From an uncultured Actinomycetes bacterium (GTDB lineage: Bacteria; Actinomycetota; UBA4738; HRBIN12), in the NCBI GenBank assembly GCA_963704885.1, contig CAVPIB010000004.1:1024001-1088000 (forward strand): a DNA stretch of 64,000 bases. Reading direction: 5' to 3'. Below are positions 25,286 through 54,528 of the stretch, in pieces (position 1 is the stretch's first letter; every line of letters begins with the position of its first letter). The translations under genes were made by a program, and so were the position numbers. Below the pieces are notes generated by a model. The model was given only the letters and a program-made list of their open reading frames with translations, had not been told where the DNA came from and searched no databases.

Positions 25286-25365
25286 GACGGCCGCACGGGC
25301 GCGCTTTGACCGGTCCCAACACGGGGGCATAGGCTCGCCGGAACGCTCTAGGGAAGGCGTTCTGC

Positions 25366-29930: not shown

Positions 29931-30001
29931 GCCGTCGATTCCTTATCCAGAGCGCCTATCATACGCGCCTCCATCGGAGCTCGTAGCCTCTGGAGACGCG
30001 G

Positions 30002-32232: not shown

Positions 32233-33606
32233 ATGAGGACGCTCATCACCGGCGGTACCGTCGTCACCGCCATCGAGACCACGCAAGCCGACGTCGTTAT
32301 CGAAGACGAGAAGGTCGCCGCGATCGGCCGGGGTATGAGCGTCGAGCCGGACGTCACGATCGACGCCACCGACCGATACGTGATGCCGGGTGGCGTCGAC
32401 GTCCACACTCACATGGAGCTGCCGTTCGGCGGAAGCTTCTGCTCGGACGACTTCGAGACCGGCACCCGCGCCGCGGCGTTCGGCGGCACGACCACGATCG
32501 TCGACTTCGCGGTGCAGGACTACGGCGAGGGTCTGCGCCAAGGTCTGGATCGGTGGTTCGCCAAGGCGCAGAACGCCTGCACCGACTACGGCTTCCACGT
32601 GATCGTCCGCGAGGTGAACGACCAGGTCCTCAAGGAGATGGACGAACTGGTCGGCGAGGGAGTCACGTCATTCAAGCTGTTCATGGCATATCCGGGTGTG
32701 TTCATGCTGGACGACGCTTCGATATTCCGAGCCATGCGCCAGGCGGCCGACTCGGGCGCGCTGATCATGATGCACGCCGAGAACGGCGGCCCGATCGACG
32801 TGCTGGTCCGTCAGTTCCTGGAGGAAGGCAAGACCGATCCCATCAACCACGGCCTGACGCGCCCCGCCGTCATGGAGGGCGAAGCTGTGCACCGGGTGTT
32901 CAAGCTGGCCGAGCTTGCGGGCACGCCTGCCTACATCGTCCACCTGTCCTCGCGGGATGCGCTGAACGCGCTCCGCGAGGCGCGCGATCGCGGTCAAGCC
33001 GCCTTCGCGGAGACGTGTCCGCAGTACCTCTATCTGAGCCAGGACGACATGGCGAAGCCGGGCTTCGAGGGCGCGAAGTACGTCTGCTCACCACCGCTCC
33101 GCACGGCCGACCACCAGGAGGAGCTCTGGATGGGGCTGCGCTCCGGCGACCTCTCGGTCGTGTCCACCGATCACGCGCCGTTCAACTACGAAGGTCAGAA
33201 GGACCTGGGCAAGGGGGACTTCTCCAAGATCCCGAACGGGCTTCCCTCCGTCGAGGATCGGTTCACGCTGCTGTACGGAGGGGTCGAGGCGGGCCACATC
33301 GACCTGAACCGCTTCGTGGAGCTGGTGGCCACCGCGCCGGCCAAGATGTTCGGCCTCTACCCGCGCAAGGGAACGATCGCGCCGGGATCCGATGCCGACA
33401 TCGTGGTTTTCGACCCGAAGAAGGAGCGGACGATCTCCTCGTCCACCCACCACATGCGCGTGGACTACTCGGCCTACGAGGGCCGCGTGGTTCGCGGGCT
33501 CCCCGAGGTCGTCATGCAACGCGGCGAGGTCCTGGTGAGCGGCGGGGAGTTCCTGGGCAAGCCGGGACAGGGACGCTTCCAGCCCAGGAGCCGGCTCACG
33601 GCGTAG
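32233..33606 (+). CDS. hydA: Dihydropyrimidinase / D-hydantoinase
   Basis: PGGVDVHTHM, GTRAAAFGGTTTIVDF, SFKLFMAY, MHAENG, ETCPQYL, STDHAPF, IPNGLPSVE. Confidence 0.93.
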   Translation: MRTLITGGTVVTAIETTQADVVIEDEKVAAIGRGMSVEPDVTIDATDRYVMPGGVDVHTHMELPFGGSFCSDDFETGTRAAAFGGTTTIVDFAVQDYGEGLRQGLDRWFAKAQNACTDYGFHVIVREVNDQVLKEMDELVGEGVTSFKLFMAYPGVFMLDDASIFRAMRQAADSGALIMMHAENGGPIDVLVRQFLEEGKTDPINHGLTRPAVMEGEAVHRVFKLAELAGTPAYIVHLSSRDALNALREARDRGQAAFAETCPQYLYLSQDDMAKPGFEGAKYVCSPPLRTADHQEELWMGLRSGDLSVVSTDHAPFNYEGQKDLGKGDFSKIPNGLPSVEDRFTLLYGGVEAGHIDLNRFVELVATAPAKMFGLYPRKGTIAPGSDADIVVFDPKKERTISSSTHHMRVDYSAYEGRVVRGLPEVVMQRGEVLVSGGEFLGKPGQGRFQPRSRLTA

Positions 33607-35944
33607 CCGTGGCAGTCGGCGGTCCGGACGAGGTCCGTGGCCCGACGAGCCCGACGAGGTCGTCGGGCTTCACCGGTACCCGGTTCAGCTCGCGTCCTGT
33701 CGCATCTCGCAGGGCGGCGACGATGGCCGCGGTGGCCACGACGGTCGACGGCTCGCCGACGCCCTTCGCACCGAAGGGCACGCCCGGCTCCGGTTCCTGC
33801 ACCAGCACCGTCAACATGGGCGGCATGTCGAGGATCGTCGGGATCAGATAGTCGGTGAACGACGCGTTGCGGATGTGGCCATCCTCGAGTAGCAGCTCCT
33901 CCATCAGCGCCAGACCCAGGCCCTGCGCCGTCCCGCCCTCGACCTGTCCCTCCACGCTCTTGGGGTTGAGCGCGTTGCCGACGTCTTGGGCGGCGGCTAT
34001 CTGGATCACGCGGACCAGTCCGAGATCCTGATCCACCTCCACGACCGCGCGTTCGACCGCGAAGGCGAACGAGACGTGGACATCCCCCTGTCCCGACTCG
34101 TCCATGGGTTGGGTAGGACGGTGGTGATAGACGCGGGTCGCTTCGATGGGCTCGCCCAGGAGATCCGCGACCGAACCGAGCGCGGACCCCTCGGCCAACA
34201 CCTGTCCCCCGTCCAGGCGTAGCTCGACGGCCCGGTCGATCGAGGGCGTTCGGGCCCGCACACGATCGAAGAGCTTGTTGCGCACGGCGGCGCACGCGAG
34301 CTGCACCGCCCCTCCAGACATCATGGTCTGCCGCGAAGCCGAGCTGGAACCCGCGGAGCCGATGCTCGTGTCGGATGGATCGAGGATCACTTCTTCCACA
34401 CCCAGCTCGCTGCGAGCGATCTGCATCAAGACGGTGTGCACACCCTGGCCGACCTCCGCCGCCGCGCTGTGTATCTCCACGAGCGGCCCGTCGGCTCCCA
34501 TCGAGAGCCTGACGCTCGCCTCCGACGAGTCGTCGAACCCCTCGCTGTAGGCCGTGTTCTTGTACCCGACCGCGAAGCCGACACCGCGTCTCAAGCCCTC
34601 ACCGTGCCCGACGTTCTGCGCTCCCCCCGGGACGGTGATGGGATCCCTTCCGTCCAGACCCGCCGCCCGCTCGGGCGGCATCGGGATCGCCGCGCATCGC
34701 TCGATGAGCTCCCTGACCGGCGCAGTCCCGCCGATGACCTGGCCCGTGGGCAGGGTCGAGCCGGTGGACAGGGCGTTCTTCAGGCGGAGCTCGACCGGGT
34801 CCATGCCCAGTGCGTGGGCGAGCTTGTCCATCTGTCCCTCGTAGGCGAAGCAGGCCTGGACCGCGCCGAACCCACGCATCGCGCCGCACGGCGGATTGTT
34901 GGTGTAGACGCCCGTCCCTTCGATGAGCGCATTCGGAACCTCGTAGGGCCCGCATGCGAACGTGGCGGCGTTTCCGATCACGGCCGTCGACGACGAGGCG
35001 TAGGCTCCTCCGTCCATCAGCAATCGGGCCCGGACGTTGACGAGGCTGCCGTCAGTGTTGGCTCCGTGACGCATCCAGATCCGCGAGGGATGGCGATGCA
35101 CGTGGCCGAGGAAGGACTCGGCACGTCCGTACGACATCTTCACGGGCCTGCCGGTGTGCAGTGCCAGCATGCTCGCGTGTATCTGCATGCTGAGGTCCTC
35201 GCGTGCGCCGAACGCTCCGCCGACCCCCGCGAGATGCACGCGGACCTTCTCTTCGGGCAGACCCAGGCAGGGTGCCATCTGCTGGCGGTCTACGTGCAGC
35301 CACTGGGTGGCGACGTAGACGTCGATCCCTCCGTCCTCGGCGGGCACCGCCAGACCCGCCTCCGGCCCCAGCGGCGCCTGGTCCTGCATCCCCGTCTCGT
35401 AGTAGCCCTCCACCCACACGTCGGCATCCGTATCGGGATCGCCGTGGACGATGCGGACGTTGCGCAGGATGTTGCCGAGCCCCGCGACCTTCGGCGCGTC
35501 GGGCCTGAGCGCCTCCTCCATGTCGGTGACGGCCGGGAGGATCTCGTAGTCCACCACCACGCTGGCCGCCGCCCGTCGAGCCAGCTCCGGATGCTCGGCC
35601 GCCACGATCACGACCGGCTCTCCCACGTACCGCACCTCGTCCCAAGCCAGGACGGGCTGGTCGGCGACATCCAGGCCGTACGTCCTCTTGCCGGGAACGT
35701 CGTCGGCGGTGAGCACGGCGTAAACCCCGGGGCTCGCCACCGCGCCCGCCACCTGTATCGAGCGGATCCTGGCGTGCGGATGAGGGCTGCGGAGCGTATG
35801 TCCCCAGAGCATCTCGTTCGCCCACAGGTCGCTCCCGTAGGCGAACGAACCCTTGGTCTTGGGGATCCCGTCTATCCGCGCGACGTCTTCCCCCATACCC
35901 CCCCGGGTGCGATCCCTCAGGCGCGTGTCACTCAAGGTCGACAC
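33596..35944 (-). CDS. pucD: Xanthine dehydrogenase family molybdopterin subunit (PucD-like)
   Basis: LRSPHPHARI, QDQAPLGPE, GGAFGARED, AMRGFGAVQ, SAGSSSASRQT, GQVEGG, GAKGVGEP. Start GTG 35944. Confidence 0.88.
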   Translation of the reverse strand: MSTLSDTRLRDRTRGGMGEDVARIDGIPKTKGSFAYGSDLWANEMLWGHTLRSPHPHARIRSIQVAGAVASPGVYAVLTADDVPGKRTYGLDVADQPVLAWDEVRYVGEPVVIVAAEHPELARRAAASVVVDYEILPAVTDMEEALRPDAPKVAGLGNILRNVRIVHGDPDTDADVWVEGYYETGMQDQAPLGPEAGLAVPAEDGGIDVYVATQWLHVDRQQMAPCLGLPEEKVRVHLAGVGGAFGAREDLSMQIHASMLALHTGRPVKMSYGRAESFLGHVHRHPSRIWMRHGANTDGSLVNVRARLLMDGGAYASSSTAVIGNAATFACGPYEVPNALIEGTGVYTNNPPCGAMRGFGAVQACFAYEGQMDKLAHALGMDPVELRLKNALSTGSTLPTGQVIGGTAPVRELIERCAAIPMPPERAAGLDGRDPITVPGGAQNVGHGEGLRRGVGFAVGYKNTAYSEGFDDSSEASVRLSMGADGPLVEIHSAAAEVGQGVHTVLMQIARSELGVEEVILDPSDTSIGSAGSSSASRQTMMSGGAVQLACAAVRNKLFDRVRARTPSIDRAVELRLDGGQVLAEGSALGSVADLLGEPIEATRVYHHRPTQPMDESGQGDVHVSFAFAVERAVVEVDQDLGLVRVIQIAAAQDVGNALNPKSVEGQVEGGTAQGLGLALMEELLLEDGHIRNASFTDYLIPTILDMPPMLTVLVQEPEPGVPFGAKGVGEPSTVVATAAIVAALRDATGRELNRVPVKPDDLVGLVGPRTSSGPPTATATP

Positions 35945-35945
35945 C

Positions 35946-37301
35946 TCAGCTCTTCCCCGCCAGGCGCCGCCCGACCCGCCGGGCTTCGGCCGCAACCTCG
36001 TCCTCATCGACGTTGGCCAGGCGGCCCTCACGAACGACAACCCTGCCCTCCACGAAGAGATGCCGCACCTGCTTGGGAGCGCACAGGAGCACCGCCGCGA
36101 CCGGGTCGGCCTCGGCGCCGGCGAAGCCGAGGCCATCCAGCCCGACGAGAGCGATATCGGCTCGCTTCCCGGGCTCGAGCGATCCGATGTCGTCCCTGCC
36201 CAGGCACGCCGCGCCGCCCCGCGTTGCCACCCGCAGGACGTCACGGGCGGCCATAGCCTCCGCGCCTCCGAACGCTCGCGCCGACAGCAGAGCCTGACGC
36301 GACTCGGCGAGCATGTTGCCGATGTCGTTCGACGCCGAGCCGTCCACACCCAGGCCGACGATGGCGCCCGCGTCGAGGAGCGATCGGGCGGGAGCGATGC
36401 CCGAGCCGAGCCGCATGTTCGACGAGGGACACCAGGCGACACCGGAGCCGGTCTCCGCGATCCTGTGGATGTCTGCGTCGTCCAGGTGCACGCAGTGGGC
36501 CAGCCAGACGTCTGGCCCCAACCAGCCTTGTTCCTCGAGCAGTTCGATCGGACGTTTCCCGAAGGTCTCCAGGCAGAAGGCCTCTTCGTCCTTCGTCTCG
36601 GCGATGTGCGTGTGGAGCCTGACACCCAGACGACGAGCGAGCTCGGCCGACTCGCGCATCAGCTTGTCGGTGGCGGAGAAGGGCGAGCACGGAGCCACCC
36701 CGATCCGCAGCATCGCGCCCGGCTCGGGGTCGTGGAACCGCCCGACCGTATCCTCGGTCTGCGCCAGGATCGTGTCGGTCTCCTGAACGACCGAGTCGGG
36801 CGGCAGCCCTCCCGCCGAGCTGCCCAGATCCATCGAGCCCCGGCAGGGGTGGAACCGCAGGCCGATCTCGGCCGCCGCCTCGATCTCGGTTTCCAGCAGC
36901 TCCCCCGCCCCCTGGGGGAACACGTAGTGGTGGTCCGCGGTCGTGGAGCATCCGGAGAGGGCGAGCTCGGCCAGGCCCACGGCCGACGCCGCACGCATCC
37001 ACTCCTGGTCGACGCCGGCCCACACGGGGTAGAGCTCGGTGAGCCAACCGAACAACCCCTGGTCGGCCGCCCGAGCCCGGGTCATGGTCTGGTAGAGGTG
37101 GTGGTGCGTGTTCACCAGACCGGGGATGGCCACGGTGCCGCGGCCGTCCACGCGCTCGGCTCCCTCCGCGCCGGGGGGCGCACCCGAACCGGCCCATGCG
37201 ATGACGCCGTCGTTCACAAGGATGGAGCCCCCTGCGATCTCGGATCCTCGGTCGTCCATGGTCACGACGACCTCGCACGACTCGATGAGCACCTGGCCCA
37301 C
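35946..37301 (-). CDS. 8-oxoguanine deaminase family amidohydrolase
   Basis: PGLVNTHHHLYQTMTRA, LFGWLTELYPVW, RGSMDLG, APCSPFS, HTHIAET, CPSSNMRLGSG, GVDGSASND. Confidence 0.88.
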   Translation of the reverse strand: MGQVLIESCEVVVTMDDRGSEIAGGSILVNDGVIAWAGSGAPPGAEGAERVDGRGTVAIPGLVNTHHHLYQTMTRARAADQGLFGWLTELYPVWAGVDQEWMRAASAVGLAELALSGCSTTADHHYVFPQGAGELLETEIEAAAEIGLRFHPCRGSMDLGSSAGGLPPDSVVQETDTILAQTEDTVGRFHDPEPGAMLRIGVAPCSPFSATDKLMRESAELARRLGVRLHTHIAETKDEEAFCLETFGKRPIELLEEQGWLGPDVWLAHCVHLDDADIHRIAETGSGVAWCPSSNMRLGSGIAPARSLLDAGAIVGLGVDGSASNDIGNMLAESRQALLSARAFGGAEAMAARDVLRVATRGGAACLGRDDIGSLEPGKRADIALVGLDGLGFAGAEADPVAAVLLCAPKQVRHLFVEGRVVVREGRLANVDEDEVAAEARRVGRRLAGKS

Positions 37302-37775
37302 CTAGCTCGCCTCCTCGGGCATCCGCTCCGCGGCGAGCCACACCGCATCGAGGATCTTCGCGTACCCCGTGCAGCGACATAGATTGCCCGACAGCGCCTC
37401 TCGAACAACGGGCTCGGTCGGCGCCGGGTCATGCTCCAGCAGGTCGGTCACGGCCACGATCAGGCCCGGCGTGCAGAACCCGCACTGAACCGCGCCCGCA
37501 TCGACGAACGCCCGCTGTACAGGATGGACCTGGTCGGTCGCCGCGAGCCCCTCGACCGTTCGGACCTCTCGCTCATGCGCCTGCGCCGCCAGGACCAGGC
37601 ACGAGCACACCAGCTCGCCGTCCAGCCAAACGGTGCACGAGCCGCATTCGCCTTGTTCGCATGCGTTCTTCGACCCGGGCAGGCCCATCTCCTCCCGCAG
37701 CACATACAGGAGGTTGGAGCCGGGCCAGACGTCGGCCTCCCGCCACTCGCCGTTGACGCTCACCCGGATCAGCAC
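37302..37775 (-). CDS. Xanthine dehydrogenase 2Fe-2S subunit (PucE/CoxS-like)
   Basis: [30 protein letters not shown]. Confidence 0.92.
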
Positions 37776-37788
37776 CGCCACCCCCCGG

Positions 37789-38667
37789 TCATGTTCGCTC
37801 GATCCCATCCCGGCGCGACGCCAGGGCCCACCCCAGCGCACGTCGCGCCAGGACCAAGCATGCGTGTCGCCGGTACGCGGCCGACCCTCGCACATCGTCG
37901 ATAGGTCTCGCCGCGGCCGCGACCCGTTCGGCGAACCCCTCTATCTCCTCCGAGGCCAGAGCCGCCGCCGGCTCGTCCCATGTGCCGGACCGAGCCAGCG
38001 CCTCGGCCACGAACACCTCAGCGTCGGGCGCACGCAAGACGGTCGGTCCCACGGATCCGAGGGCGACGCGGACCGCGCGGGCGTCCTCGTCCAGCACCAG
38101 ACACAAGCCGGCCACCGAGATCACCATGGCGTTGCGCGTCCCTATCTTCGAGAACGAACCTGGCCCGCGAACCGCTCGCCATCTGGCGCCCAGGATCAGC
38201 TCTTCGGGTTCCAAGGCGGTCTGTTTCGGGCCGAGGTGGAACTCGTCCCAGCGCAAGGTCCGGGTGCGCCTCGCGCTCACGAGGACTATCTGCGCGTCGT
38301 AGGCGGCGAGCACCGGTAGCGCATCGCCGGCGGGCGAACCGGTGCCCAGATTGCCTCCCACCGTTCCGCGGGTGCGGATCTGTGGGGAGCCCACCGTCCG
38401 GGACGCCTGCGCGAGCGGCGTGAGATCGGACAGCTCTCGCAGGATCCGGCCATACGTCACGCCCGCCCCGAGGAAGATGGCGCCCTCCTCTCGCCTCCAC
38501 TCGCGCAGCTCTGGCAGGCGGCAGATGTCGATCATGATCTCCGGCCGGCGCAGGTCGAAGTTCAGCTCGACCATCACGTCAGTACCTCCGGCTATCGGGA
38601 GCGCTCCCGGGTGGGCGGCCCTCATCTCCAGGGCCTCGTCGAGCGTCCGCGCCAGCAACACATCCAT
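37789..38667 (-). CDS. Xanthine dehydrogenase FAD subunit (PucC/CoxM-like)
   Basis: PIAGGTDVMV, TVGSPQIRTRGTVGGNLGTGSPAGD, PIDDVRGSAAYRR. Confidence 0.92.
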   Translation of the reverse strand: MDVLLARTLDEALEMRAAHPGALPIAGGTDVMVELNFDLRRPEIMIDICRLPELREWRREEGAIFLGAGVTYGRILRELSDLTPLAQASRTVGSPQIRTRGTVGGNLGTGSPAGDALPVLAAYDAQIVLVSARRTRTLRWDEFHLGPKQTALEPEELILGARWRAVRGPGSFSKIGTRNAMVISVAGLCLVLDEDARAVRVALGSVGPTVLRAPDAEVFVAEALARSGTWDEPAAALASEEIEGFAERVAAAARPIDDVRGSAAYRRHACLVLARRALGWALASRRDGIERT

Positions 38668-38678
38668 GAAGGATCCCC

Positions 38679-39696
38679 TTAGAACTCCCCGTCGGCGAAG
38701 GCGTCGATCATCGCAGGCACATCGTCTCCGACCGGGTAAAGGATCGGGCAGGTGCAGCCGGCCTCGACGTACTCGCGGACCTTCGCCCTGCACTCGTCGG
38801 GCGTTCCCGCGGCGGAGATCAGCTGCACTGCTTCGTCTGGCACGAGCTTCATGGCGCGGTGGATCTCCTCCGGTCCCGCCGGCCACGTGAGGACCTTGCC
38901 GATCTCCTCGATCAGTGCAGGGTCGATGCCGCTCGCCTTCATGATGTGCGGCTGCTGGCCAAGGTATTGCGTGAGCAGCTCACGAGCTCGATCGAGCGCG
39001 ACGTCTCGATCGTCGTCGAGCGAGCACACGACCAGCTGCGGACGATCGATGTCTTCCACACTTCTACCTACGCGAGCCGCTCCGGCGGCCAGAGCGCGCA
39101 TGGCCTCCTGGTTGTATAGAGGTCCCACCATGTAGTTGAGCACCACTCCGTCCGCGATCTCGCCGGCGAGCTCCATCATCTTCATCCCGGTCGCTCCGAC
39201 GTAGATCGGAACGTTCTTCGGCGAGCGATCGCCGTGCACGATGTCGATCTCGATGTCGTCGACATGGACGAGCTCCCCGTGGAACGTCACGCGTTCCATC
39301 GCCAGGAGCCGTCGCACGACCTCCACGGTCTCGCGCATCGCCAGCAGGGGTTTCCGACGCTGGATCCCGACCTTCGAGGCGAGTGGGTCCCACCAGGCGC
39401 CGATGCCCAGCAGGATCCGTGCCGGGCGCGAGGTCGTCCAGCGTCGAGAACGTGGCCGCGAGCAGACCGACGTTGCGGGTCCAATTGTTGACCACACCCG
39501 AGCCGACCTTGATCCGATCGGTAACGGCGGCGAACGCGGCCATCGGCACGGTCGCTTCTCGGACCAGCCGGCTCTCGGCCTGCCACACCGCCTCGAATCC
39601 CCGCTCCTCGGCGTAGCGCGCATACTCCATCCCCTCGCGGATCGGATGCTTGTCCTGCAGATACAGCGCCACCCTTCCCTCGGTCCTCACGCTCAA
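38679..39696 (-). CDS. Mer-like LLM-class oxidoreductase, putatively F420-dependent (apparent 1-nt insertion at 39420)
   Basis: N-part [20 protein letters not shown]...[12 protein letters not shown] joins [10 protein letters not shown]...[22 protein letters not shown] if one base is removed. Confidence 0.8.
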
Positions 39697-41024
39697 GAGG
39701 CGTCTCCTCCCAACGGATCGAAGCCGTGCGGCTCGATCGACGAGTACCGCTCCCACAGGCGTCGGGCGACCTCCGAGGCTTTCGCCGCGAGTTCGTCTTG
39801 GTCGACCTTGACGAGCCGCCGTTCCCGCACCACGAGCTCGCCGGCCACGATGACGTCTCGCACAGCGCGGGAGGCGAGGCCGAACATCCGATGTCCGGCC
39901 AGGTTCTCGGCCGTCAGCGGGGTGGGCACAGGAGCATCGAGCACCACGAGATCCGCGGCGGCCCCGGGCTCGATCCGCCCGAACGCCGTCTCTTCGAAGA
40001 GCCTGCCCACGAGGCGGCCGCCCTCGGCCAGGCGTGCCGACGGCCATCCGATCGGGAACGAGACGTCGTCATCCCTGGCCCGGAAGTACGCAGCCTTGGC
40101 CTCCGCGAACATGTCGGCGCCGATGCCATCGGTGCCCAGCGCGACCCTATCGCCGAGCGCTGCGACCGCCGCATGACCGACCGAGTTGTTCATATTGGAC
40201 GTGGGGTTGTGCGCGACCGACGCACCCGACTCCCGCACGGACGCCGTCTCGGCTTCGTCAAGGTGGATGCAGTGGGCGAGCAGGGCGCCATCATGCAGCA
40301 CGCCCGCCTTCTCGAGCCTCGGAACCACCCTGATGCCGAAGCGCTCGACCGCGTCTCTTTGATCGCTCACGTCTTCAGCGACGTGGATGTGCAGGCCCGC
40401 GCCCGTCCGTGCCGACACATCCACGCACGCGTCGAGCGTCTCAGGCGAGAGCGTGAAGGACGCGTGGGCCCCCACCATGCCTCGCGCCAGGGGCCGGCGC
40501 TGCGCGAGGAACCGTTCGTTCTCAAGTACTCCAGCCGCGGCGATCCCGGCGCCGTCCCTGTCGCTCACCTCGTAGCAGAGCACCGACCGTATGCCGACCT
40601 CCTCGAGCGCGTTGGCCACGATGTCGAGCGAGCCGTCGACGGCGTTCGGGGATGCGTGGTGATCGACCACCGTGGTGGTTCCGCAGAGCAGCGCTTCCAT
40701 GCCGCCGACCAGCGCGGAAGCGCGGATCGACTCCTCATCCAACGCCCGGTCCAGCCGCCACCAGATGCGCTGGAGGATCTGCACGAAGTTCTCAGGTGGG
40801 GCGAGCCCGTAAGGCATGCCGCGCGCGAGAGCGGAATACAGATGGGTGTGGGCGCACACGTTGCCCGGCACGATCAGGCACCCGGTGCAATCGAGCCTGG
40901 TCCCGCCGCCGGTGGCACTCCCCGGCGCCGAAACGTGGCCGCCTTCCACCACCACGTCGGTCCGTTCGATCATGGGGGGCTCGAGCGCGGAGACCACCGT
41001 CCCCCCCGAGAGCACGAGGGTCAT
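39693..41024 (-). CDS. ssnA: SsnA-like amidohydrolase
   Basis: [80 protein letters not shown]. Confidence 0.85.
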
Positions 41025-41040
41025 CGTTCGCCCGCTCCGC

Positions 41041-43680
41041 CTACGCCCTCGCGCCTTCACCGGCCTCGGCGCGCGCCGAGGCCAGCCGCGGCACCGCCGC
41101 GCGGGCTGCAGGGGAATCGGTCATCGGCAACCGTGTCCTACGCACCCTGTCGAACGCATACAGCGCTCCGGCGACGGCACCGGCCGTCGGAACCAGGGCT
41201 ATCTCGCCGACGCCCTTAGCACCGTAGGGCCCCTCCGGCTGGTGCTCCTCTACGAAGATGCACTCGAGCGGCGGCATCCCCATCGGAGGGATGATGTTGA
41301 GCGACTTCAGCGTCTGCGTCATCGGGATGCCATCCGCCATCACGAGCTCCTCCGACAGCGAGTGTCCGAGACCCATGTGGAGTCCGCCCTCCACCTGTCC
41401 TTCCAGGAGCGTTGGATTGATGACCTTGCCGACGTCGTGTGCGGCGACGATCTTCTCGATAGCGCCGTCGTCGTCAAGGATCACCACCTGGGTCGCCCAG
41501 CCGTAGGCGAAATGCGTTGCGGACCCCTCGGGCCCTTCGCCGGGCTTGTGCGTCCAGTCGATCAACACCTCGCCATAGAACTCTTGTCCCGCAAGGTCTT
41601 CTAGGCGTCCACCGTTCATCGCGGCCTTGAGCTTGGCCGCCGCCTCGATGACTGCTCGCCCGCCCAGCACGGTCGCGCGTGAGGCTGTCGTCTGCCCCGT
41701 GCCGAGCTCCCGCATCGTGTCGACGACGACCACCACGCGGTCCGGTGTAAGACCGAGCTCCTCGCACGCGATCTGCATCAGAGCCGTGTTCGAGCCCTGG
41801 CCCATCTCGGTCCATGAGTGGAACAGGGTCACGCCGCCGTCAGATCCCGGTCGCAGGATCGCCTTCCCGTACTCCGGGAGGCCGTTGCCGATGCCCGTGT
41901 TCTTCACGCCGCACGCAACGCCAGCGTGTTTCGCGCCTCGATAGGCATCTTTGACCGCGAGCAGCGTTCTCTTGAGACCCACGCCGGGGCCCAGAACCTG
42001 ACCGGTCGAGAACGTATCGCCGACCTCCAGCGCGTTGCGCCAGCGGATCTCCCAGCCGTCGATCCCCACCTTCTCGGCCAAGATGTCCATCATGCCCTCG
42101 ATGGCGAAGTTCGACTGGTTGGCACCGAAGCCGCGCATCGCCCCGCACGGTGGGTTGTTCGTGAAGACCGCGCGAGCCTCGATATCCACGTTCGGCACCC
42201 GGTACGCGCTGCAGGCGTGACCCGCAGCTCGTTCGAGGACCTTGTCGCCCACGCTCGCGTACGCGCCGGTATCTCCCACCATCCGGCTCCGGACCGCCAC
42301 CAGCCGGCCCTCTTCGTCGCAGCCGACCGTGTACTCCATGGTGATGGGGTGTCGCTTCGGGTGGAAGCGGATGCTTTCGGCCCTGGAGAGCGTGAGGAGA
42401 ACGGGCCGTCCCGTCATGCGCGCCAGCAAGCATGCATGCGTCTGGACGTTCAGGTCCTCCTTGGCACCGAAAGCGCCGCCGTTGGAGACCTGGGTCACGC
42501 GCACCTGATCGTTGGGCACCCCGAGGAAGGACGCGATCTGGTCTCGGTCTTCCCAGACACCCTGCCCCTGGGAGAAGCAGTGGATGCCTTCGTCGGTCGG
42601 CATAGCGAAGGCCGACTCGGGCTCCAGGAAGGCATGTTCGATGAACTGCGTCCGGAAGGTCTCGGTGGCAACGTGCGCGGCCGTCGCCAGCGCACCGTCC
42701 ACGTCGCCCCGCTTGACCTCGGAGATCGAGAAGAGATTGCCGTTCTCGTGGATCTCCGGAGCACCGTCGGCGATCGCGTCGAATGGATCGGTGACGGGCT
42801 CGAGGACCTCGTACTCGACATCGATCAGAGCCGCAGCCTCTCGCGCGGCCACGCGGTCTTCCGCCGCTACGACGGCCATGACGTCGCCGACGTAGCTCGT
42901 GATCTCGCCCTCCGCGACGAACTGTCGCCAGTCCTTGACGATCAACCCCTGCCTTCGCTCCCCCGGCACGTCCTTCCACGTGGCGACGGCCGCGACGCCG
43001 GGGTATGCCTCAGCCCTCGACGTGTCGATCTTCGTGATGAGCGCGCGCGGATGCTCGGACCAGGCAACGGCCCCGTGCAGCATGCGGGGCGCCTTCATGT
43101 CGTTGATGTAGGCCTTGTCGCCGAGCGCGAGGTCGTGCCCCTGGTACCTGGCCGTCCTAGACCCGACGCGGCCGCTACGGTCGATCTCGGGCATCGGCTC
43201 GCCACGCCTGGCCCCGGCCACCAACCGGATGGCGTCGATGATCTTGACGTAGCCGGTGCACCGGCAGAGGTTCCCGGCGAGCGCCTTGGCCACATCCTCA
43301 CGAGACGGGTTCGGGCTCTTCGCCAGTAGCGATTCGGACTTCATCACGATGCCGGGCGAGCAGAACCCGCACTGGGACGCTCCGGCCGCGACGAAGCAGT
43401 CCGCCCACTGGTGCCGCCGATCGGGTGTGAGTCCCTCCTGGGTCGTGATGCTCTTCCCGATGAACCTGGCGGCAGGCTGCGCGCACGATACGACGGCCTT
43501 CGCGTCGACCAACACGGTGCAGGCGCCGCACGATCCTTCCGGCGCGCATCCGTCCTTGACCGACGTGACACCGCAGCCCACGCGCAGGAGGTCGAGGAGG
43601 CTGGCGCCCCCGCCGACCTCGACGGACATCGGCTCACCGTTGAGTATGAATTCCACCCTGAGCCTCCGGTCCCGAGCCAT
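41041..43680 (-). CDS. xdh: Selenium-dependent-type xanthine dehydrogenase family molybdoenzyme (fused 2Fe-2S + Moco, no FAD domain)
   Basis: SVKDGCAPEGSCGAC, QCGFCSPG, CRCTGYVKI, EHAFLEPES, GGAFGAKEDL, KRHP, KNTGIGNG, TTASR, GAKGVGEI; context with ssnA/ygeXYW. Confidence 0.82.
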   Translation of the reverse strand: MARDRRLRVEFILNGEPMSVEVGGGASLLDLLRVGCGVTSVKDGCAPEGSCGACTVLVDAKAVVSCAQPAARFIGKSITTQEGLTPDRRHQWADCFVAAGASQCGFCSPGIVMKSESLLAKSPNPSREDVAKALAGNLCRCTGYVKIIDAIRLVAGARRGEPMPEIDRSGRVGSRTARYQGHDLALGDKAYINDMKAPRMLHGAVAWSEHPRALITKIDTSRAEAYPGVAAVATWKDVPGERRQGLIVKDWRQFVAEGEITSYVGDVMAVVAAEDRVAAREAAALIDVEYEVLEPVTDPFDAIADGAPEIHENGNLFSISEVKRGDVDGALATAAHVATETFRTQFIEHAFLEPESAFAMPTDEGIHCFSQGQGVWEDRDQIASFLGVPNDQVRVTQVSNGGAFGAKEDLNVQTHACLLARMTGRPVLLTLSRAESIRFHPKRHPITMEYTVGCDEEGRLVAVRSRMVGDTGAYASVGDKVLERAAGHACSAYRVPNVDIEARAVFTNNPPCGAMRGFGANQSNFAIEGMMDILAEKVGIDGWEIRWRNALEVGDTFSTGQVLGPGVGLKRTLLAVKDAYRGAKHAGVACGVKNTGIGNGLPEYGKAILRPGSDGGVTLFHSWTEMGQGSNTALMQIACEELGLTPDRVVVVVDTMRELGTGQTTASRATVLGGRAVIEAAAKLKAAMNGGRLEDLAGQEFYGEVLIDWTHKPGEGPEGSATHFAYGWATQVVILDDDGAIEKIVAAHDVGKVINPTLLEGQVEGGLHMGLGHSLSEELVMADGIPMTQTLKSLNIIPPMGMPPLECIFVEEHQPEGPYGAKGVGEIALVPTAGAVAGALYAFDRVRRTRLPMTDSPAARAAVPRLASARAEAGEGARA

Positions 43681-43703
43681 GCTGGCCCGCGTTCAACGAG
43701 TCG

Positions 43704-44848
43704 TCAATCCGTGCCCACGATCTGGCGATAGGCCTGTGGGTCGGTTGCCCCTTCCGTAGAGACCACCAGCACGGTGCTGCCACCGTCGACGCCCAGCGAG
43801 CGCCGCGCGTCCTCAGCGGAGGGGCCGGTCAGGACTTCGAGCAGCCCGCCCAACCCCGAGGCGCCGGACTCCCCGGAAACGATGCCCTCCTTCGCGAGCA
43901 GTCGCATCGCCTCGCGCGCACGTTCGTCCTCGATCGCGACGAACACATCGATACCACGGGAGAGCACGGGCCAAGCGATCAGCGACGGCGTCCCGCAGTT
44001 GAGGCCAACCATGATCGAGCGGTGAGGACCCGGAACGCTCACGACCGTTCCCGCGCGAGCGGACTCGAGCGCACAGTCGGCGTCGAGGGGCTCGACGCCG
44101 ACGATCGCCGTGTGTCCGACAGCGTCGGGGCTCCGCAGATGCTGCACCACCGCACACGCGAAGGCCCCAACGCCGATCTGGGCGGCCGCGAGGTCGATCC
44201 GGTCGCCTGTCGCATCGAGCGCTCCCTGCACCTCGCGCATCACCGTTCCGTATCCCTCGATGATCCACCGCGGAACGCGGTCGTAGCCGGGCCAGGAGGT
44301 GTCGGAGATCACGAGGCAGTCATCAGACGCCTCGGCCGCCGATCGACGGATCGTCTCGTCGTAGTCGCCGTCCACCACGGTCACGCGGGCGCCCTCCGAC
44401 GCGATCGCAGCGATGCGCGCGTCCGACGTCCCTTCAGGCACGAGGATGTCAGCGCCCAGGCCCAGGAGCGCCGCCATCCGCGCGACCGCTCGGCCGTGGT
44501 TCCCGTCGGTCGCCGCCGCGAGCGAAAGGGGCTTGATCGGTGCCAACAGCTCGCCGAGTTGATCGAACGTCTCCCAAGCGGGGAGCGGATCGCCCAGCTT
44601 CTCCAGGACCGCTCGATAGACGGCCCAGGACGCGCCGAGGATCTTGAACGAGGGCAGGCCGAACCGGCTGGACTCGTCCTTCACGAGGACGCGGGCGACC
44701 CCAAGAGCTGCGGCGATACCAGGCGCGCTCAGCAATGGCGACGGCTCGTACCCAGGCAAGCGCTCGTGGAACCGCAGAGGCTCCGGCGTTGGTGGCTCAT
44801 CCAGGCGGAACCGCCGCGCCTCTTCTAGGTTGTCGAACCGCTCGCTCC

Positions 44849-44852
<4 letters not shown>
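43704..44852 (-). CDS. dpaL: Diaminopropionate ammonia-lyase (YgeX/DpaL)
   Basis: [64 protein letters not shown]. Confidence 0.9.
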
Positions 44853-46341
<1,489 letters not shown>

Positions 46342-46345
<4 letters not shown>

Positions 46346-47340
46346 ACTCGAAACCCGCCCATGGTGAGAGCCATGAGGGCCTTCCCCGTGTGTAGGCGGT
46401 TCTCGGCTTCCTGGAAGACGACCGAGTGCGGCCCGTCGATCACCTCGTCGGTGACCTCCGAGCCTCGGTCGGCCGGCAGGCAATGCATGTAGAGGGAGTC
46501 CTCTCGCGCGAGCGACATCCGGCGAGCGTCGCAGATCCAGTCCTGATACTTCGAGCCGTCGGCAAGTGCTTCCTGCTCGTTGCCGAACAGATCCAGCCGG
46601 CCCCAAGACTTCGGATAGACCACGTCGGCGCCTTCGAATGCTGCGTCCATGTCGTCTACGAAAGTGATCGAGCCTCCACCCTGCGCGGCGGCGTCTTCGG
46701 CTCGCTTCTGCAGCTCGGGCATGAAGCCGTAGCCCGGCGGATGGGCTACTACAACCTCTGCGCCGAATCGCGGAAGGAGAGCCACCAGGCCCTGCGGCAC
46801 CGAGATCGGCTTCGCGTAGGACGGCGCGTGCGCCCAGCTGACGGCAACACGTAGCCCCCGGATGTCGTTGCCGCGAAGCTCTCTGATGGTCATGAGATCC
46901 GCGAGCGTCTGCGTCGGGTGGTCCACGTCGCACTGGAGGTTGATCACGGGCACCTCCGCCCACTCGGCGACCGCGCGCATATACGCATTGCCCTCATACG
47001 GAACGAGGTCATGACGGATCGCGATGCCGTGCCCGTAGCTCGAGAGGATGATGCCGAAGTCCTTCGGGCTCTCGCCGTGCGCCACCTGCGTCTTCTCGGC
47101 GTCGAGATAGTGGGCGTGTCCCCCCAACTGGGTCATCCCTGCCTCGAAAGCGTTGCGGGTCCTCGTCGACTTGTCGAGGAACAACATGAACAGCGTCTTG
47201 TCGGGAAGCAGGCGGTGCGCCTCGCCCCGCTTGAACTTGTCCTTCAGCTCCCCGGCGACGTCGAGAGCCTCGTCGATCGCCTCGACTGACCAATCGAGCG
47301 TCTCGATGTAGTCGTGTCCGGCCAGCGTCTCGCGATCCAC
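46342..47340 (-). CDS. ygeW: YgeW-like carbamoyltransferase
   Basis: [16 protein letters not shown], YgeW-type [30 protein letters not shown]. Confidence 0.78.
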
Positions 47341-47374
47341 CCCTGGTCCTCCTCTCGCCTCGGAAAGTCTGGGC

Positions 47375-48595
47375 TCAGCTCGACCCCGCACCCGACGCCG
47401 CAAGGTACCGCTCGGGGAAGGCCGCGTACCACGCTGCGGCCGTGGCGAGATGTTCGACCGGACACTGGTCGTCGACGCTGTGCGCGTAGATCTCGTTCGC
47501 GGGCCCGAACCCGATCGTCGGGATCCCGAGCTCCCCGGCGCTCGAGACGCCGTTCGTCGAGAAGATCCAACGGCTGACCTTCGGGGTCCGGCCGAGGGCG
47601 TGCTCGCCGGCCTCGACCCCTGCCTTCACGGAAGGATGAGCTTCATCCGTCACCCAGGTCGGGAAGTACTTGGGCGTCTTGAGCGTGAGCCCGGTGTAGG
47701 CCTTGCCCTCGTACTGCACGAGCTCGATCTGCGCGTCCCCGTCCTGGACGGCCGGCAGCGACTCCAGCTCGGCCTGGGACGACTCCACCGACTCGCCGAT
47801 CGTCAGGCGCCTGTCGAGGAAGATCGTGCATCCGTCCGGCACGGCGTTCAGCGAGGGCGTCTGGCACTCCACCTTCGAGACGACGACGGTCCCTTTGCCC
47901 AGGAACGGATCGGGGGCGAGTCGCTCGTTCAGTTGCTCGATCTGCTGGGCGATCGGAGCCATCATGTAGATGGCGTTGACCCCGCGCTCGGGAGCCGAGG
48001 CGTGGGCCGCCTTGCCGCGCGTGTGGATAGCGAACTCCGCGCGCCCACGGTGCCCCCGGTATACCTGCAGGTTCGTCGCCTCACCGAGCACGACCACCTC
48101 GGCTTTGGGGATCACGTTCGTCAGGAGGTATCCGAGCGCCAACCCGTCGCAGTCCTCCTCTTGGACGGTACCCACTACCCATAATGTGAACCTCGACGTG
48201 TCGATGCCGAGGCGTCGGATGAGCGACGCGCCGTAGACCATCGAGGCGATCGCCGCCTTGTTGTCCGAAGCGCCGCGGCCGTACAGGACGCCACCTTCGA
48301 TCCTGGCTTTGAACGGATCGGACTTCCACAGGCTTAGGTCGCCGGTGTCGACCACGTCGATGTGGGAGTCGTAGACGATGTGGACGGGGCCGTCACCGAT
48401 GCGACCGATCACGCTGCCGAACCCATCGACGATGACCTCGTCGAAACCCATCCGCGTCATCTCGTTGCCGATGCGCTGCACGACCGAGTTCTCGTCCCTC
48501 GACAGGCTCGGCAAGGAGACCAAGTCGGCCAGGAAGGACGTCACCGCCTCGGAATCCCGATCGGCTTCCTTCTGGTAGCGCTCGTCGAGCTTCAT
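47375..48595 (-). CDS. ygeY: YgeY family M20 hydrolase
   Basis: DSHIDVV, GRGASDNK, GTVQEEDCDG, YRGHRGR, HASAPERGVNAIY, SLNAVPD, RWIFSTNGV, GFGPANE..AH. Confidence 0.88.
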   Translation of the reverse strand: MKLDERYQKEADRDSEAVTSFLADLVSLPSLSRDENSVVQRIGNEMTRMGFDEVIVDGFGSVIGRIGDGPVHIVYDSHIDVVDTGDLSLWKSDPFKARIEGGVLYGRGASDNKAAIASMVYGASLIRRLGIDTSRFTLWVVGTVQEEDCDGLALGYLLTNVIPKAEVVVLGEATNLQVYRGHRGRAEFAIHTRGKAAHASAPERGVNAIYMMAPIAQQIEQLNERLAPDPFLGKGTVVVSKVECQTPSLNAVPDGCTIFLDRRLTIGESVESSQAELESLPAVQDGDAQIELVQYEGKAYTGLTLKTPKYFPTWVTDEAHPSVKAGVEAGEHALGRTPKVSRWIFSTNGVSSAGELGIPTIGFGPANEIYAHSVDDQCPVEHLATAAAWYAAFPERYLAASGAGSS

Positions 48596-48696
48596 CCGTC
48601 AACCCTCCGGCCCCAGGCCGTCCCCCGGCGGGTAGCCATCCGCGATAGCCGTCGACATCCCGCCGACAAGCCTTCACCGGCAGTAAACCACAGGCG

Positions 48697-48729
48697 GCTG
48701 GACGGGCTGCCGTAGGCAGCCCGTCCAGC
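48697..48729. terminator. Perfect 15-bp hairpin downstream of the ABC substrate-binding gene (terminator or mRNA stabiliser)
   Basis: GCTGGACGGGCTGCC-GTA-GGCAGCCCGTCCAGC. Confidence 0.65.
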
Positions 48730-48773
48730 TACTCCACCCGACCTCAGGCCGGCTCAGTCACCCGCGGCGATCC

Positions 48774-49932
48774 TTACGCGCCGCCCTCCTCGAGCGTGAC
48801 CTCCGTCGGCGCATAGCTATCGCCGGACGTGTCAACGCCCAGATCGGCCAAGGCCGCGAGCGCCTCGTTCACGATGTCGTTCGTCCACGCCCCATCGGTC
48901 GGCTCCGCGGTAAGCACCGTGGCTCCCTCCAGGTTCGGAGTATCCATCGCGATCTGGACCGTGCGGTCCCACGCGGCCTCGTCGATCACGCCGATCCCGT
49001 TCGAGGACGGCCAGATCAGCTGGTTGATCTCGTTCATCTGCCACAGCTGGTGGCTGTTGCCGAGCTTCGAGCCCTTCGCCACGACGATGTCGCGGCACTC
49101 CTCGACGTTGTCCCGGCAGTAAGCCCATCCCTGCAGCGACGCGGTCACGAACCGTACCGCCATGTCGCGGTATGCGGCGTCGGACTCGAGCTTGTCGGCG
49201 TTCGCCCAGATCGCATCCTGCAGCATGCCGACGCCCTCGCCCTCGTAAGACACGACGTTCAGCTCGTCCGGCGTGTACAGCTCACCCGTGTCCGGGTTCA
49301 CGGCCTCCAGCACCTGCGCGTACTCGTTGTAGATCATGGCCTCGGCGGCGTCGATGTCGCCCGACAGCAGCCCAAGCATGTCGAACTGCTGCTGCACCAA
49401 CGAGACGTCGTTAGCGGGGTCGAGGCTCTTCCTTGGCCAGGGCGGCGAAGATCTCGTACTCGTTGCCGAAACCCCAGTTGCCGATCGTCTTTCCGGCGAA
49501 GTCGGCGGCCGACGTGATCCCGGCGTCCTTGAACGAGACCTGCAGCGTGCCGGAACGCTGGAACACCTGCGCGATGTTCACGATGTTCGCCCCGGCCTCG
49601 CGGCTCGCGAGGGCCTTCGGGACCCACGCCATCGCGAAGTCCACGGCGCCATCGGCGAGCTGCTGCTGGGGCACGATGTCGACGCCGCCCTCGACGATCG
49701 TCACGTCCAGGCACTGGTCGGCGTAGAAGCCCTTGTCCTGCGCCGCGAAGAACCCTGCGAACTGAGCCTGGATGAACCACTGCAGCTGGAGCTTGACCGA
49801 GTCGGTCGTCGTGCACTCCTCTTCGCCGCCGCCGCCGCCCCCGCCTCCTCCGTCGTCGTTGCTACATGCTGCGCCCACGAGCGCGAGCGCCACCACCCCT
49901 GCGGCGATGAGACGGAATCGATGACCCCTCAT
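48774..49932 (-). CDS. ABC transporter substrate-binding lipoprotein, NMT1/THI5-like (apparent 1-nt insertion near 49427)
   Basis: Lipobox VGAAC; LQLQWFIQAQFAGFFAA, AQVFQRSG; LAKE(G)LDPANDVSLVQQQFDM joins the two ORF-track fragments. Confidence 0.85.
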
Positions 49933-50000
49933 GTGTTGCCTCCTCCCCCCGGGGCGACAGCCCCGCTCGAACTTCTCTCAAGACGATCGGCCATCATGCC

Positions 50001-50813
50001 CTATCGAGACGTCGGCCGCCGACCCGGCGTGGCGACGCGCTCCAACCCCACCGCGATCAGGTAGAACGTGAGCCCCAGGAGGCAGGCCCCCATCACGTAG
50101 GCCCAGGCCGATGCGTTCTTCGAGATCGCGATGCTCGCGACTATCCGGCTCCCCAGGCCGTTCTGGCTGCCGCCGAAGTACTCCGAGACGAACGCCGTGA
50201 TAACGGCGGCCGGCGCCGCGATCCTGAGCGCCGTGAACAGGTACGGCACCGCGTTCGGCACCCGGACCTTCCGCAGGATCGCGACCTCGCTGGCCGCGTA
50301 GGAGCGCATCAACTCGAGCTGCGTCGGACCGACCTCCCTTAGACCTCTGGCCACATTCACCAATACGATGAAATAGACGACGAGGCTCACCATCAGCCGC
50401 CGAGGCACCTCGCTGGTGATCGAGAACATGTTATTGAACACCGACACCAGGACGAAGATCGGTACCGCGTTGAGTCCGATCGCGAGCGGCGTGACCAGGT
50501 CGTTCAACAGGCGGAACCGCACCAGCAGGAAGCTCATCGTGATGCCGAGCCCGGTTCCCACCAGCAACCCGATCAGGGCGTTCAGCCCGGAGACCTTCGT
50601 CGCGTTCCATATCAGGGTCGTGTTCTCGTTGAACTGCTGCCAGATCGAAGTCGGTGCCGGCAGGAAGTAGGGCTTGAAGTCGAACACCTTCACGGCGAGC
50701 TCCCAGAGCACGAGGAACCCGAGACCGAACACGACCGGCGGCCACAGGGACTGGAACAGCGACCCGGTCGAGCGGGTCCGCCGGGCCTGGCTGGACGCCA
50801 GCGCGGAGCTCAC
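50001..50813 (-). CDS. ABC transporter permease (TauC/SsuC-like)
   Basis: YFLPAP, EAA-like ELMRSYAAS...KVRVPNAVPYLF, SEYFGG. Confidence 0.9.
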   Translation of the reverse strand: MSSALASSQARRTRSTGSLFQSLWPPVVFGLGFLVLWELAVKVFDFKPYFLPAPTSIWQQFNENTTLIWNATKVSGLNALIGLLVGTGLGITMSFLLVRFRLLNDLVTPLAIGLNAVPIFVLVSVFNNMFSITSEVPRRLMVSLVVYFIVLVNVARGLREVGPTQLELMRSYAASEVAILRKVRVPNAVPYLFTALRIAAPAAVITAFVSEYFGGSQNGLGSRIVASIAISKNASAWAYVMGACLLGLTFYLIAVGLERVATPGRRPTSR

Positions 50814-54409: not shown

Positions 54410-54528
54410 CGCGCAACTCCCTCTTCCGGCTCTGGGTGCCATGGTAGTCAGCCGGTCCGAACGGCGCGACCCTAACGCCCCGCGACAGGCGGTGGCGCTC
54501 GGCATCCCATCGGCCGTAGGCTCGACGG

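Follow-up and report, generated by a model that had tools for sequence, protein, structure and literature searches.

Reductive degradation of urate through 2,8-dioxopurine was worked out in gut bacteria as late as 2025. The E. coli cluster has the order ygeW-ygeX-ygeY-hyuA-yqeA ... ygfK-ssnA-ygfM-xdhD, and YgfK or UacX, each together with SsnA, converts 2,8-dioxopurine, according to the available portions of one paper (Li et al., 2025; PMC12507026). For clostridia, the accessible part of a preprint has shown that XdhAC is a 2,8-dioxopurine dehydrogenase, or DOPDH, and that YgeW/YqeA make ATP (Liu et al.; 10.1101/2025.04.24.650524). Li et al. have also proposed an F420-dependent reductase of the luciferase family for clusters in Chloroflexota and have reported SsnA in both Chloroflexota and Actinomycetota. 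Theirs is the only paper linking F420 to the pathway that was found in a literature search, and the available text of the preprint has no mention of F420, Chloroflex, Actinobacteri, Actinomycet or luciferase. A commentary describes the pathway as limited to obligate or facultative anaerobes and lists four open questions, namely in which order the ureido groups are cleaved, what the stereochemistry is, which donor gives electrons to the first enzyme, and whether the route is old or arose lately as an adaptation to the gut (PMC12990295).

The locus described here occupies positions 32233-48595 of a 64-kb stretch of contig CAVPIB010000004.1, and the whole stretch is referred to as the window. It is probably an operon for oxygen-free breakdown of purines via urate and 2,8-dioxopurine to pyruvate, in a large environmental branch of the pathway known from metagenome-assembled genomes (MAGs) of soil and groundwater. 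Homologues of the E. coli proteins SsnA, YgeY, YgeX, HyuA and YgeW are present in the window, and the same chemistry from urate to pyruvate is proposed for them. Compared with the E. coli cluster as described in the available text, the window is without YgfK, YqeA, YgfM, YqeB/C, MocA and UacT, and its molybdenum (Mo) enzyme is of a different lineage. It adds a luciferase-like monooxygenase (LLM) and a second pyridoxal phosphate (PLP) enzyme, called PLP2 here, and it carries xanthine dehydrogenase and 8-oxoguanine deaminase inside the same operon. The clusters of C. sporogenes and C. difficile (XdhAC acting as DOPDH, with UacX and UacY) likewise have a fused iron-sulfur and Mo enzyme without its own FAD subunit, a likeness drawn from the description in the accessible text, whereas the reductase of the window is an LLM and not YgfK or UacX. 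The closest match to the window is the F420 variant predicted for Chloroflexota, in which a PF00296 protein adjoins ssnA instead of YgfK or UacX, as far as the available part of that paper goes (Li et al., 2025).

Gene order and predicted chemistry of the locus

The twelve named genes comprise a block of eleven on the minus strand (33596-48595) and hydA on the plus strand. A sequence-only reading of the window had described a tightly packed minus-strand run with hydA converging on it, and all twelve genes are indeed present in that order and on those strands. With start codons read from the sequence, neighbouring genes of the run overlap by up to 20 nt or lie at most 34 nt apart, which makes it one operon-like block; hydA and pucD share 11 nt at their 3' ends. 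The G+C content of the window is 65-71%. The part of the block encoding the Mo enzyme (XdhD), SsnA, LLM, PucC, PucE, 8-oxoguanine deaminase and PucD aligns with a related locus, L001, over 10,073 nt at 80.8% identity. Because of this alignment and because related arrangements recur in 80 loci, the grouping of genes is not chance.

Curated NCBIfam cut-offs are reached by 7 of the 12 proteins: YgeY, DpaL, the Mo hydroxylase of TIGR03311 type, SsnA (borderline), 8-oxoguanine deaminase, PucD and HydA. The assignment of the gene set to the reductive urate (2,8-dioxopurine) pathway is upheld by these scores and by the position of SsnA inside the clade of E. coli SsnA. The proposed check by hidden Markov models gave a mixed outcome, since YgeY, DpaL, TIGR03311 and SsnA (with NF005540) pass and the cut-offs for YgeW are missed.

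The predicted flow, each step of which is drawn from homology and gene context, would begin with the supply of urate by the xanthine dehydrogenase PucCDE and by 8-oxoguanine deaminase, all encoded on the minus strand. The pucD gene (33596-35944; TIGR03196, 863 bits against a cut-off of 783.65) would encode the molybdopterin subunit, the pucE-like gene (37302-37781; Fer2_2 at 108 bits and Fer2) a 2Fe-2S subunit, and the pucC-like gene (37789-38667; FAD_binding_5 at 144 bits and CO_deh_flav_C) the FAD subunit; the latter two reach no NCBIfam cut-off. The deaminase gene, with urate as the expected product, lies at 35946-37301 (NF006055, 657.2 against 532). The fused 2Fe-2S and molybdopterin hydroxylase (41041-43680, minus; TIGR03311, 981.2 against 830.45) would then take the 6-oxo group off urate to give 2,8-dioxopurine. 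The LLM, a Mer-like protein of the F420 class (38679-39690, minus, in two frames; PF00296 only), would use F420H2 to dearomatise the ring by hydride transfer, the step of YgfK in E. coli and UacX in C. difficile. SsnA (39693-41060, minus; NF005540, 444.1 against 444; TIGR03314, 426.6 against 455.5), an amidohydrolase, would open the reduced purine ring, and the hydA/hyuA-type D-hydantoinase (32233-33606, plus; TIGR02033, 591.1 against 393.25) would open the second ring to give 2,3-diureidopropionate. One ureido group would be taken as carbamoyl phosphate by a short YgeW-type carbamoyltransferase, termed CTaseA (46342-47340, minus; 234 and 222 bits with the YgeW models, whose cut-offs are 453 and 500, and 247 against 306 for ornithine carbamoyltransferase, OTC). 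The other would be hydrolysed by YgeY, an M20 hydrolase acting on N-carbamoyl groups (47375-48595, minus; NF009555, 476.9 against 321; TIGR03526, 460 against 321.5). The 2,3-diaminopropionate ammonia-lyase DpaL/YgeX (43704-44852, minus; NF006058, 363 against 276) would finally turn 2,3-diaminopropionate into pyruvate and ammonia. The twelfth gene encodes PLP2, a 496-residue PLP enzyme resembling CysK and cystathionine beta-synthase with N- and C-terminal extensions (44849-46339, minus; PALP domain; CysK, 78 against 351).

The Mo enzyme has Fer2_2, Ald_Xan_dh_C, MoCoBD_1 and MoCoBD_2 domains in Pfam, and the name of TIGR03311, the model it passes, refers to a selenium-dependent xanthine dehydrogenase. 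A test based on Glu606 of E. coli XdhD was found to be inapplicable, as this residue sits in an insertion absent from the window-type enzyme. SsnA is 37% identical to E. coli SsnA, and its best match among the species representatives searched is 82% identical. In a FastTree phylogeny with 8-oxoguanine and guanine deaminases as the outgroup, 81 SsnA rows, including those of the window and E. coli, split from the 9 outgroup rows with 99% support. Identity with the E. coli counterparts is 46% for YgeY, 35% for DpaL (YgeX) and 44% for HydA (HyuA).

Several absences help to place the locus. A tblastn search of the window with proteins of E. coli K-12 (locus L081) gave no YgfK, YqeA, YqeB, YqeC, MocA, XanQ or UacT, in agreement with the earlier statement that ygfK is missing. 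Searching the window with reference proteins from its relatives gave no UacX/DHO_dh, Fno, CofC/D/E, ThrC-like PALP protein or adenine deaminase. The claim that the window holds neither uricase nor allantoinase also stands: no uricase domain was found among the window open reading frames (ORFs) scanned with Pfam, and HydA scores 270-271 bits as an allantoinase, under the cut-offs of 358 and 631. The label "actinobacterium-like" given to the host appears reasonable, because all 8 taxon-labelled homologues of the DEAD-box helicase of the window, among its best 120, come from Actinomycetota/Actinobacteria (best labelled match 88% identical).

Genome contigs were scanned with the window SsnA, which gave at least 588 confirmed relatives; the best 80 loci, which are not a random sample, were analysed. 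Their ORFs of at least 60 amino acids were annotated by the best BLASTP match to window proteins, E. coli proteins and a few locus references that had been checked by Pfam and NCBIfam, and the counts over 80 loci include loci running off contig ends. The commonest order is PLP2, ThrC-like PALP, a second carbamoyltransferase (CTaseB), a TIGR03311-type Mo enzyme, SsnA, reductase, (PucC-PucE-PucD), CTaseA and carbamate kinase. The window-type Mo enzyme is present in 43/80 loci and an E. coli-type XdhD in 7/80, and the urate-producing genes are represented by PucD in 19/80 and 8-oxoguanine deaminase in 10/80. The survey of synteny that had been called for thus shows related arrangements in MAGs of both Actinomycetota and Chloroflexota, among others. 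One locus labelled Pseudomonadota (L018) has an SsnA and both carbamoyltransferases that nest among rows from Gaiellales/Actinomycetes, and it is either a mis-binned contig or a transferred cluster.

A candidate F420-linked reductase beside ssnA

The reductase genes found by ssnA in the 80 loci are LLM in 36, UacX in 15, YgfK in 8 and none of the three in 21, and no locus has two together. One of the YgfK assignments (L004) is uncertain, being a partial match to Fe-S domains only. For the 53 loci that extend 5 kb or more on each side, the numbers are 29, 12, 5 and 7. The LLM gene directly follows ssnA in 31 of its 36 loci. In the other five (L049, L053, L054, L060 and L066; Anaerolineae-type, Chloroflexota by label) about 4 kb lies between ssnA and the LLM gene, and Pfam assigns to this interval (e.g. 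L053 11366-15065) Fno (F420-dependent NADP oxidoreductase), CofE (F420 gamma-glutamyl ligase), an FbiB C-domain of the nitroreductase type, CofD and CofC. Two of these loci, L060 and L066, also have a DUF6909 protein among the Mo-enzyme genes. The sequence-only reading had regarded the LLM as an added part; this is not borne out, as the LLM sits in the YgfK/UacX slot after ssnA and never co-occurs with either.

Intact copies of the LLM score best in NCBIfam with Mer, at 168-191 bits against a cut-off of 276 (181 for the copy of L001), and every other NCBIfam match listed is an F420-class family. The top NCBIfam matches of the split window gene are likewise all F420 families. Because no F420-family cut-off is reached, the LLM appears to belong to an unnamed family rather than to be a Mer. 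Its best matches among solved structures are F420-dependent Mer enzymes, so that Mer is the nearest relative by both family and structure. Both proteins would pass hydride from F420H2 to a carbon beside a ring nitrogen; the LLM differs in its score, well below the Mer cut-off, and in its proposed substrate, a purine.

Across phyla, LLMs linked to SsnA share 68-89% identity with the window copy, even in the Anaerolineae, whose SsnA is only 42-46% identical. The intact LLM of L001 and another LLM of the window are only 28% identical over 105 residues. The distribution of the LLM label over the SsnA tree implies that it arose at least twice (4 changes, of which well-supported branches force 2), and therefore the reductase has been swapped more than once. 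By context, the evidence is good that the LLM would substitute functionally for YgfK/UacX and use F420H2, and replacement of these enzymes as the 2,8-dioxopurine reductase is its most likely role. If this is confirmed, the LLM would be, to our knowledge, the first F420-dependent purine-ring reductase. The window holds a further LLM gene at 14808-15749 (minus), which passes the F420-dependent family TIGR03619 (189 against 166.9), and the three LLM genes of the window are consistent with a host that uses F420.

By database label, the 36 LLM loci comprise 26 from Actinomycetota, 5 from Chloroflexota, 1 from Sysuimicrobiota, 1 from Pseudomonadota and 3 unclassified. The F420 variant is placed in Chloroflexota in the available text of Li et al., whereas the LLM loci surveyed here are thus mostly actinobacterial. 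Of the 15 UacX loci, 14 are from Chloroflexota (Limnocylindria or "Chloroflexia" labels). A DHO_dh (UacX-like) gene and not an LLM follows ssnA in L017, L020, L023, L024, L026, L037-L039, L042, L044, L047 and L056, all Limnocylindria/"Chloroflexia" Chloroflexota, which refines the statement of Li et al. on this phylum.

Carbamoyltransferases and PLP enzymes

The carbamoyltransferase of the window starts with GTG at 47340, has a ribosome-binding site, and is 36% identical to E. coli YgeW. Its matches to solved structures are nearly tied between 3q98 (204 bits) and an archaeal OTC (202 bits). The former is named only "transcarbamylase" in the search, and we take it to be E. coli YgeW. In a quick IQ-TREE search of 82 carbamoyltransferases, with one OTC and one aspartate carbamoyltransferase (ATCase) as outgroup, the window copy falls in a 17-row clade of Actinomycetota with 100% support. 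This clade and that of E. coli YgeW form a 24-row group with 95% support, and ArgI lies outside. The alignment shows the motifs LQCD[IV]DHPTQ and PSYxKPxSVPQG in common with YgeW. Because these YgeW-specific motifs are present and the SMG loop of OTC is absent, the earlier call of "YgeW-like" appears to be a fair label for what is probably a shorter sister group of YgeW.

CTaseA or YgeW occurs in 46/80 loci. CTaseB, which is ATCase-like (e.g. L013 6190-7368), scores 229.5 bits against the ATCase cut-off of 237, groups with PyrB with 99% support in the quick IQ-TREE search, and is found in 36/80 loci, alongside the YgeW-type transferase and carbamate kinase where YgeY is absent. We infer that CTaseB stands in for YgeY and takes off the alpha-ureido group, giving two carbamoyl phosphates per urate. 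Together with CTaseA and carbamate kinase, this would imply two substrate-level phosphorylations per urate. The carbamate kinase YqeA is present in 32/80 loci; the window has YgeY and no carbamate kinase.

PLP2 is found in 50/80 loci and occurs with SsnA regardless of the type of reductase: of the 53 full loci, 26/29 with LLM, 10/12 with UacX and 3/5 with YgfK carry it. The view of PLP2 as an enzyme added by this one lineage therefore has to be given up. The family is very large, with at least 8000 candidates at E <= 1e-10 (8000/8000 scored), and its members are named only "cysteine synthase" or "PLP-dependent enzyme"; a search with the homologue P0085 likewise gave generic clusters of "PLP-dependent enzyme". 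Solved structures of cysteine synthases and cystathionine beta-synthases match residues ~134-398, and the extensions of ~100 extra residues at each end have no match to a solved structure. PLP2 has in common with CysK and cystathionine beta-synthase a core domain of fold type II together with the motifs of the lysine, the Asn loop, the Gly loop and Ser. Across 33 sequences as distant as 37% identity, there is no variation in K112 (the PLP lysine), the carboxylate loop PSTGN, the phosphate loop GSxGT, Q216 or S362. Because the catalytic motifs of cysteine synthases are all kept, PLP2 probably works by beta-elimination or beta-replacement on an intermediate with a free alpha-amino group (albizziin or diaminopropionate).

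A role as the cysteine synthase CysK itself was rejected, given the score far below the cut-off and a length of 496 residues with two extensions against a single domain of ~300 residues; its context is also purine catabolism and not sulfur assimilation. PLP2 was also rejected as a plain replacement of HyuA or YgeY, since it co-occurs with each in several loci, and as a plain replacement of DpaL, since the window carries both. A search for PLP2 fusions, which is not used as evidence, gave 12 longer proteins, of which 10 were scanned with Pfam and showed, among others, PALP-PALP and amidohydrolase-PALP arrangements, with both orders of PLP2 and PALP. These predicted fusions have 1-6 members each, are found on one contig each, and may be read-throughs of gene calling. 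At L013 1511-3364, a formate-tetrahydrofolate ligase gene lies upstream of PLP2, a possible link to C1 metabolism.

In related loci PLP2 nearly always adjoins a ThrC-like PALP protein (47/80 loci), and the window is an exception without this gene. The forms of the ThrC-like protein in Actinomycetota (L013 5352-6470) and Anaerolineae (L053 5233-6507) are 30% identical, and that of L053 passes the threonine synthase cut-off (315.6 against 303). In the available text of Li et al., CysK-like and ThrC-like PALP proteins are not told apart from YgeX, and all PF00291 genes are coloured alike. DpaL occupies the usual site of the ThrC-like gene and CTaseB in the window, with YgeY upstream. Since DpaL is found in 0/80 relatives, the window appears to combine a soil-type core with an E. 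coli-like tail of YgeY, DpaL and HydA. This arrangement suggests a swap of modules, from [ThrC-like + CTaseB] to [DpaL + YgeY] with PLP2 kept, and PLP2 would therefore do something that neither module covers. A HydA copy with 64% identity adjoins xdhD in L005, and in the same locus a pyruvate:ferredoxin oxidoreductase gene (2-1339) adjoins hydA, which is a possible link to pyruvate metabolism.

Alternative readings, neighbouring genes and meaning of the locus

A number of observations weigh against the pathway proposed for the window. The Mo enzyme is only 27% identical to E. coli XdhD, and its proposed equation with clostridial DOPDH depends on the TIGR03311 score and the domain architecture. 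SsnA passes NF005540 by 0.1 bit and fails TIGR03314, the carbamoyltransferase lies under the cut-offs of both YgeW and OTC, and the use of F420 by the LLM is deduced from its relatives and context. The hydA gene is on the opposite strand, behind a gene for an M28 peptidase, and could belong to another pathway. Most relatives are without HyuA (present in 11/80), YgeY (10/80) and DpaL within 10 kb. PLP2 has no place in the scheme borrowed from E. coli, which shows that this scheme is incomplete for the present branch. The 64-kb window also has no carbamate kinase, F420-biosynthesis genes, Fno, yqeB or yqeC. The absence of YqeA is not disqualifying, because carbamate kinase is encoded off-cluster in some strains including C. 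sporogenes, according to the accessible part of the preprint (10.1101/2025.04.24.650524). Last among these points is the reading frame of the LLM gene, which is broken as assembled.

Relative to L001, one base is inserted within an Arg codon of the LLM gene at ~39419-39421, so that its first 90 and last 247 codons fall in different frames, with PF00296 found in both. The insertion is not in a homopolymer run, and the gene for the binding protein of the adjacent transporter (NMT1/THI5-like; 48774-49977, minus) is split as well, near 49412-49429, where its N-terminal frame stops at a TAA (49411-49413). Both lesions fit a decaying remnant, in which the frameshifts are real and the pathway is no longer run, and a real insertion in the LLM gene would block the pathway of this organism at the reduction of the ring. 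Such decay is judged unlikely. The two halves of the LLM are identical to the intact L001 protein at 86/88 (98%) and 220/247 (89%) positions with no other lesion, the LLM is the best-conserved protein of the block shared with L001, and the ten other operon genes are intact. An unrelated luciferase-like gene 20 kb away (59709-60780, plus) is split in the same manner, with PF00296 positions 16-133 in the ORF 59709-60356 and 133-236 in the ORF 60211-60780. This brings the frameshifted genes in the window to at least three and indicates that indels are a problem of the assembly as a whole. In the related loci, the LLM orthologues of all 36 cover the C-terminal part of the reference at 0.98-1.0, and in 11 of the 80 loci the match to a single reference protein is divided over two neighbouring ORFs, in our own reading of the table. 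Given the lesion-free halves of high identity, the two further split genes and the split ORFs among relatives, the insertion is likely to be an assembly error and not the mark of a pseudogene.

Other alternatives concern what the genes do. The LLM might have another redox task, such as supplying the Mo enzyme with electrons or converting a later intermediate, with the ring reduced by an enzyme encoded elsewhere. There is room for this, as the physiological electron donor of clostridial XdhAC is open (PMC12990295; 10.1101/2025.04.24.650524, in its accessible part) and as the 21 loci with no nearby reductase of the three types could use one encoded off-cluster. Such a role is improbable in view of the strict mutual exclusion with YgfK and UacX, in 59/59 loci carrying any of the three, at the same site after ssnA. 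The characterised relatives Mer and Fgd, moreover, pass their hydride directly to small molecules and not to proteins. The cluster might also serve another N-heterocycle, as an ordinary xanthine dehydrogenase operon merged with genes for hydantoin or pyrimidine metabolism. HydA is a generic D-hydantoinase/dihydropyrimidinase, the two Mo hydroxylases could have different substrates, and a CN-hydrolase and a transporter with an NMT1/THI5-type binding protein lie nearby. This is highly improbable, since the combination of SsnA, YgeY, DpaL, a YgeW-type transferase and the TIGR03311 enzyme is exactly that of the characterised clusters, urate is the product of both 8-oxoguanine deaminase and PucCDE, and synteny is kept across phyla. 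Reductive urate breakdown, with the LLM as the ring reductase, is thus the preferred reading of the locus.

Upstream of ygeY and in the same orientation, an ABC transporter (permease, ATPase, permease and the split NMT1/THI5-like binding protein; 48774-52677, minus; Pfam) is separated from it by 178 nt. No counterpart of this transporter was found in the 80 loci, and it may form a separate transcription unit. A script and inspection of the sequence identified a perfect GC-rich hairpin between the transporter genes and ygeY (48697-48729, minus), with 15-bp arms, a 3-nt loop and no clear T-tract after it, which is a possible terminator or processing site. The CN-hydrolase (53570-54640, minus) resembles N-carbamoylputrescine amidase (AguB; 254 bits against 410) and is possibly an N-carbamoyl-amino-acid amidase acting on a ureido intermediate. 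On the other side, the M28 peptidase gene precedes hydA, and a divergent TetR gene lies at 29208-29942. Neighbours without a relation to the locus are an adenylate-cyclase/AAA/TPR regulator (54520-57729, plus), a Fic-domain protein (25333-26175, plus) and the soluble transhydrogenase SthA (60996-62399, plus; 547 against 465). The window gave no Rfam match and no tRNA. A scan of 33400-53390 for sigma-70 promoters and terminators found 0 promoters and 8 terminator-like sites, which is not above the 5.3 +/- 2.1 found in shuffles. A search for a shared operator in four intergenic regions (tetR-M28, binding protein-ygeY, upstream of the transporter and upstream of the CN-hydrolase) gave two 10-mers only, which were taken as chance.

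By itself, the window is a further example of a variant that the literature had predicted, and its novelty is modest because Li et al. had proposed the F420 reductase and noted SsnA in Actinomycetota. The sequence-only reading had emphasised that this lineage runs the route with different parts; the non-canonical parts are real, and the surprise is smaller than claimed, as the F420 replacement and SsnA in Actinomycetota are both present in the available text of PMC12507026. What the window adds is a member from an actinobacterium whose tail is unusual in resembling that of E. coli, with a frameshift that is probably artefactual. The family overall is more interesting, with its swapping of reductases, in-cluster F420 genes, twin transferases and pair of PLP enzymes.

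The core genes of the pathway (Mo enzyme, SsnA and reductase) are common in environmental MAGs of Actinomycetota and Chloroflexota. Three interchangeable types of reductase are found, and in the downstream half of the relatives two transferases and two PLP enzymes replace YgeY and YgeX. The window and its 80 relatives therefore bear on the open questions listed in the commentary (PMC12990295). If the LLM is confirmed, strains engineered to degrade urate could also use it instead of YgfK, as a soluble enzyme free of iron-sulfur clusters. As a tentative wider view, the reductive urate route may be old and environment-wide rather than special to gut anaerobes, extending through soil Actinomycetota and Chloroflexota, with dearomatisation by F420H2 and a Mer-like LLM or by a UacX-type enzyme and a yield of two ATP per urate. 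In that case, PLP2 and its ThrC-like partner could carry out chemistry absent from E. coli and Clostridium, e.g. beta-elimination of albizziin or the handling of D-configured intermediates.

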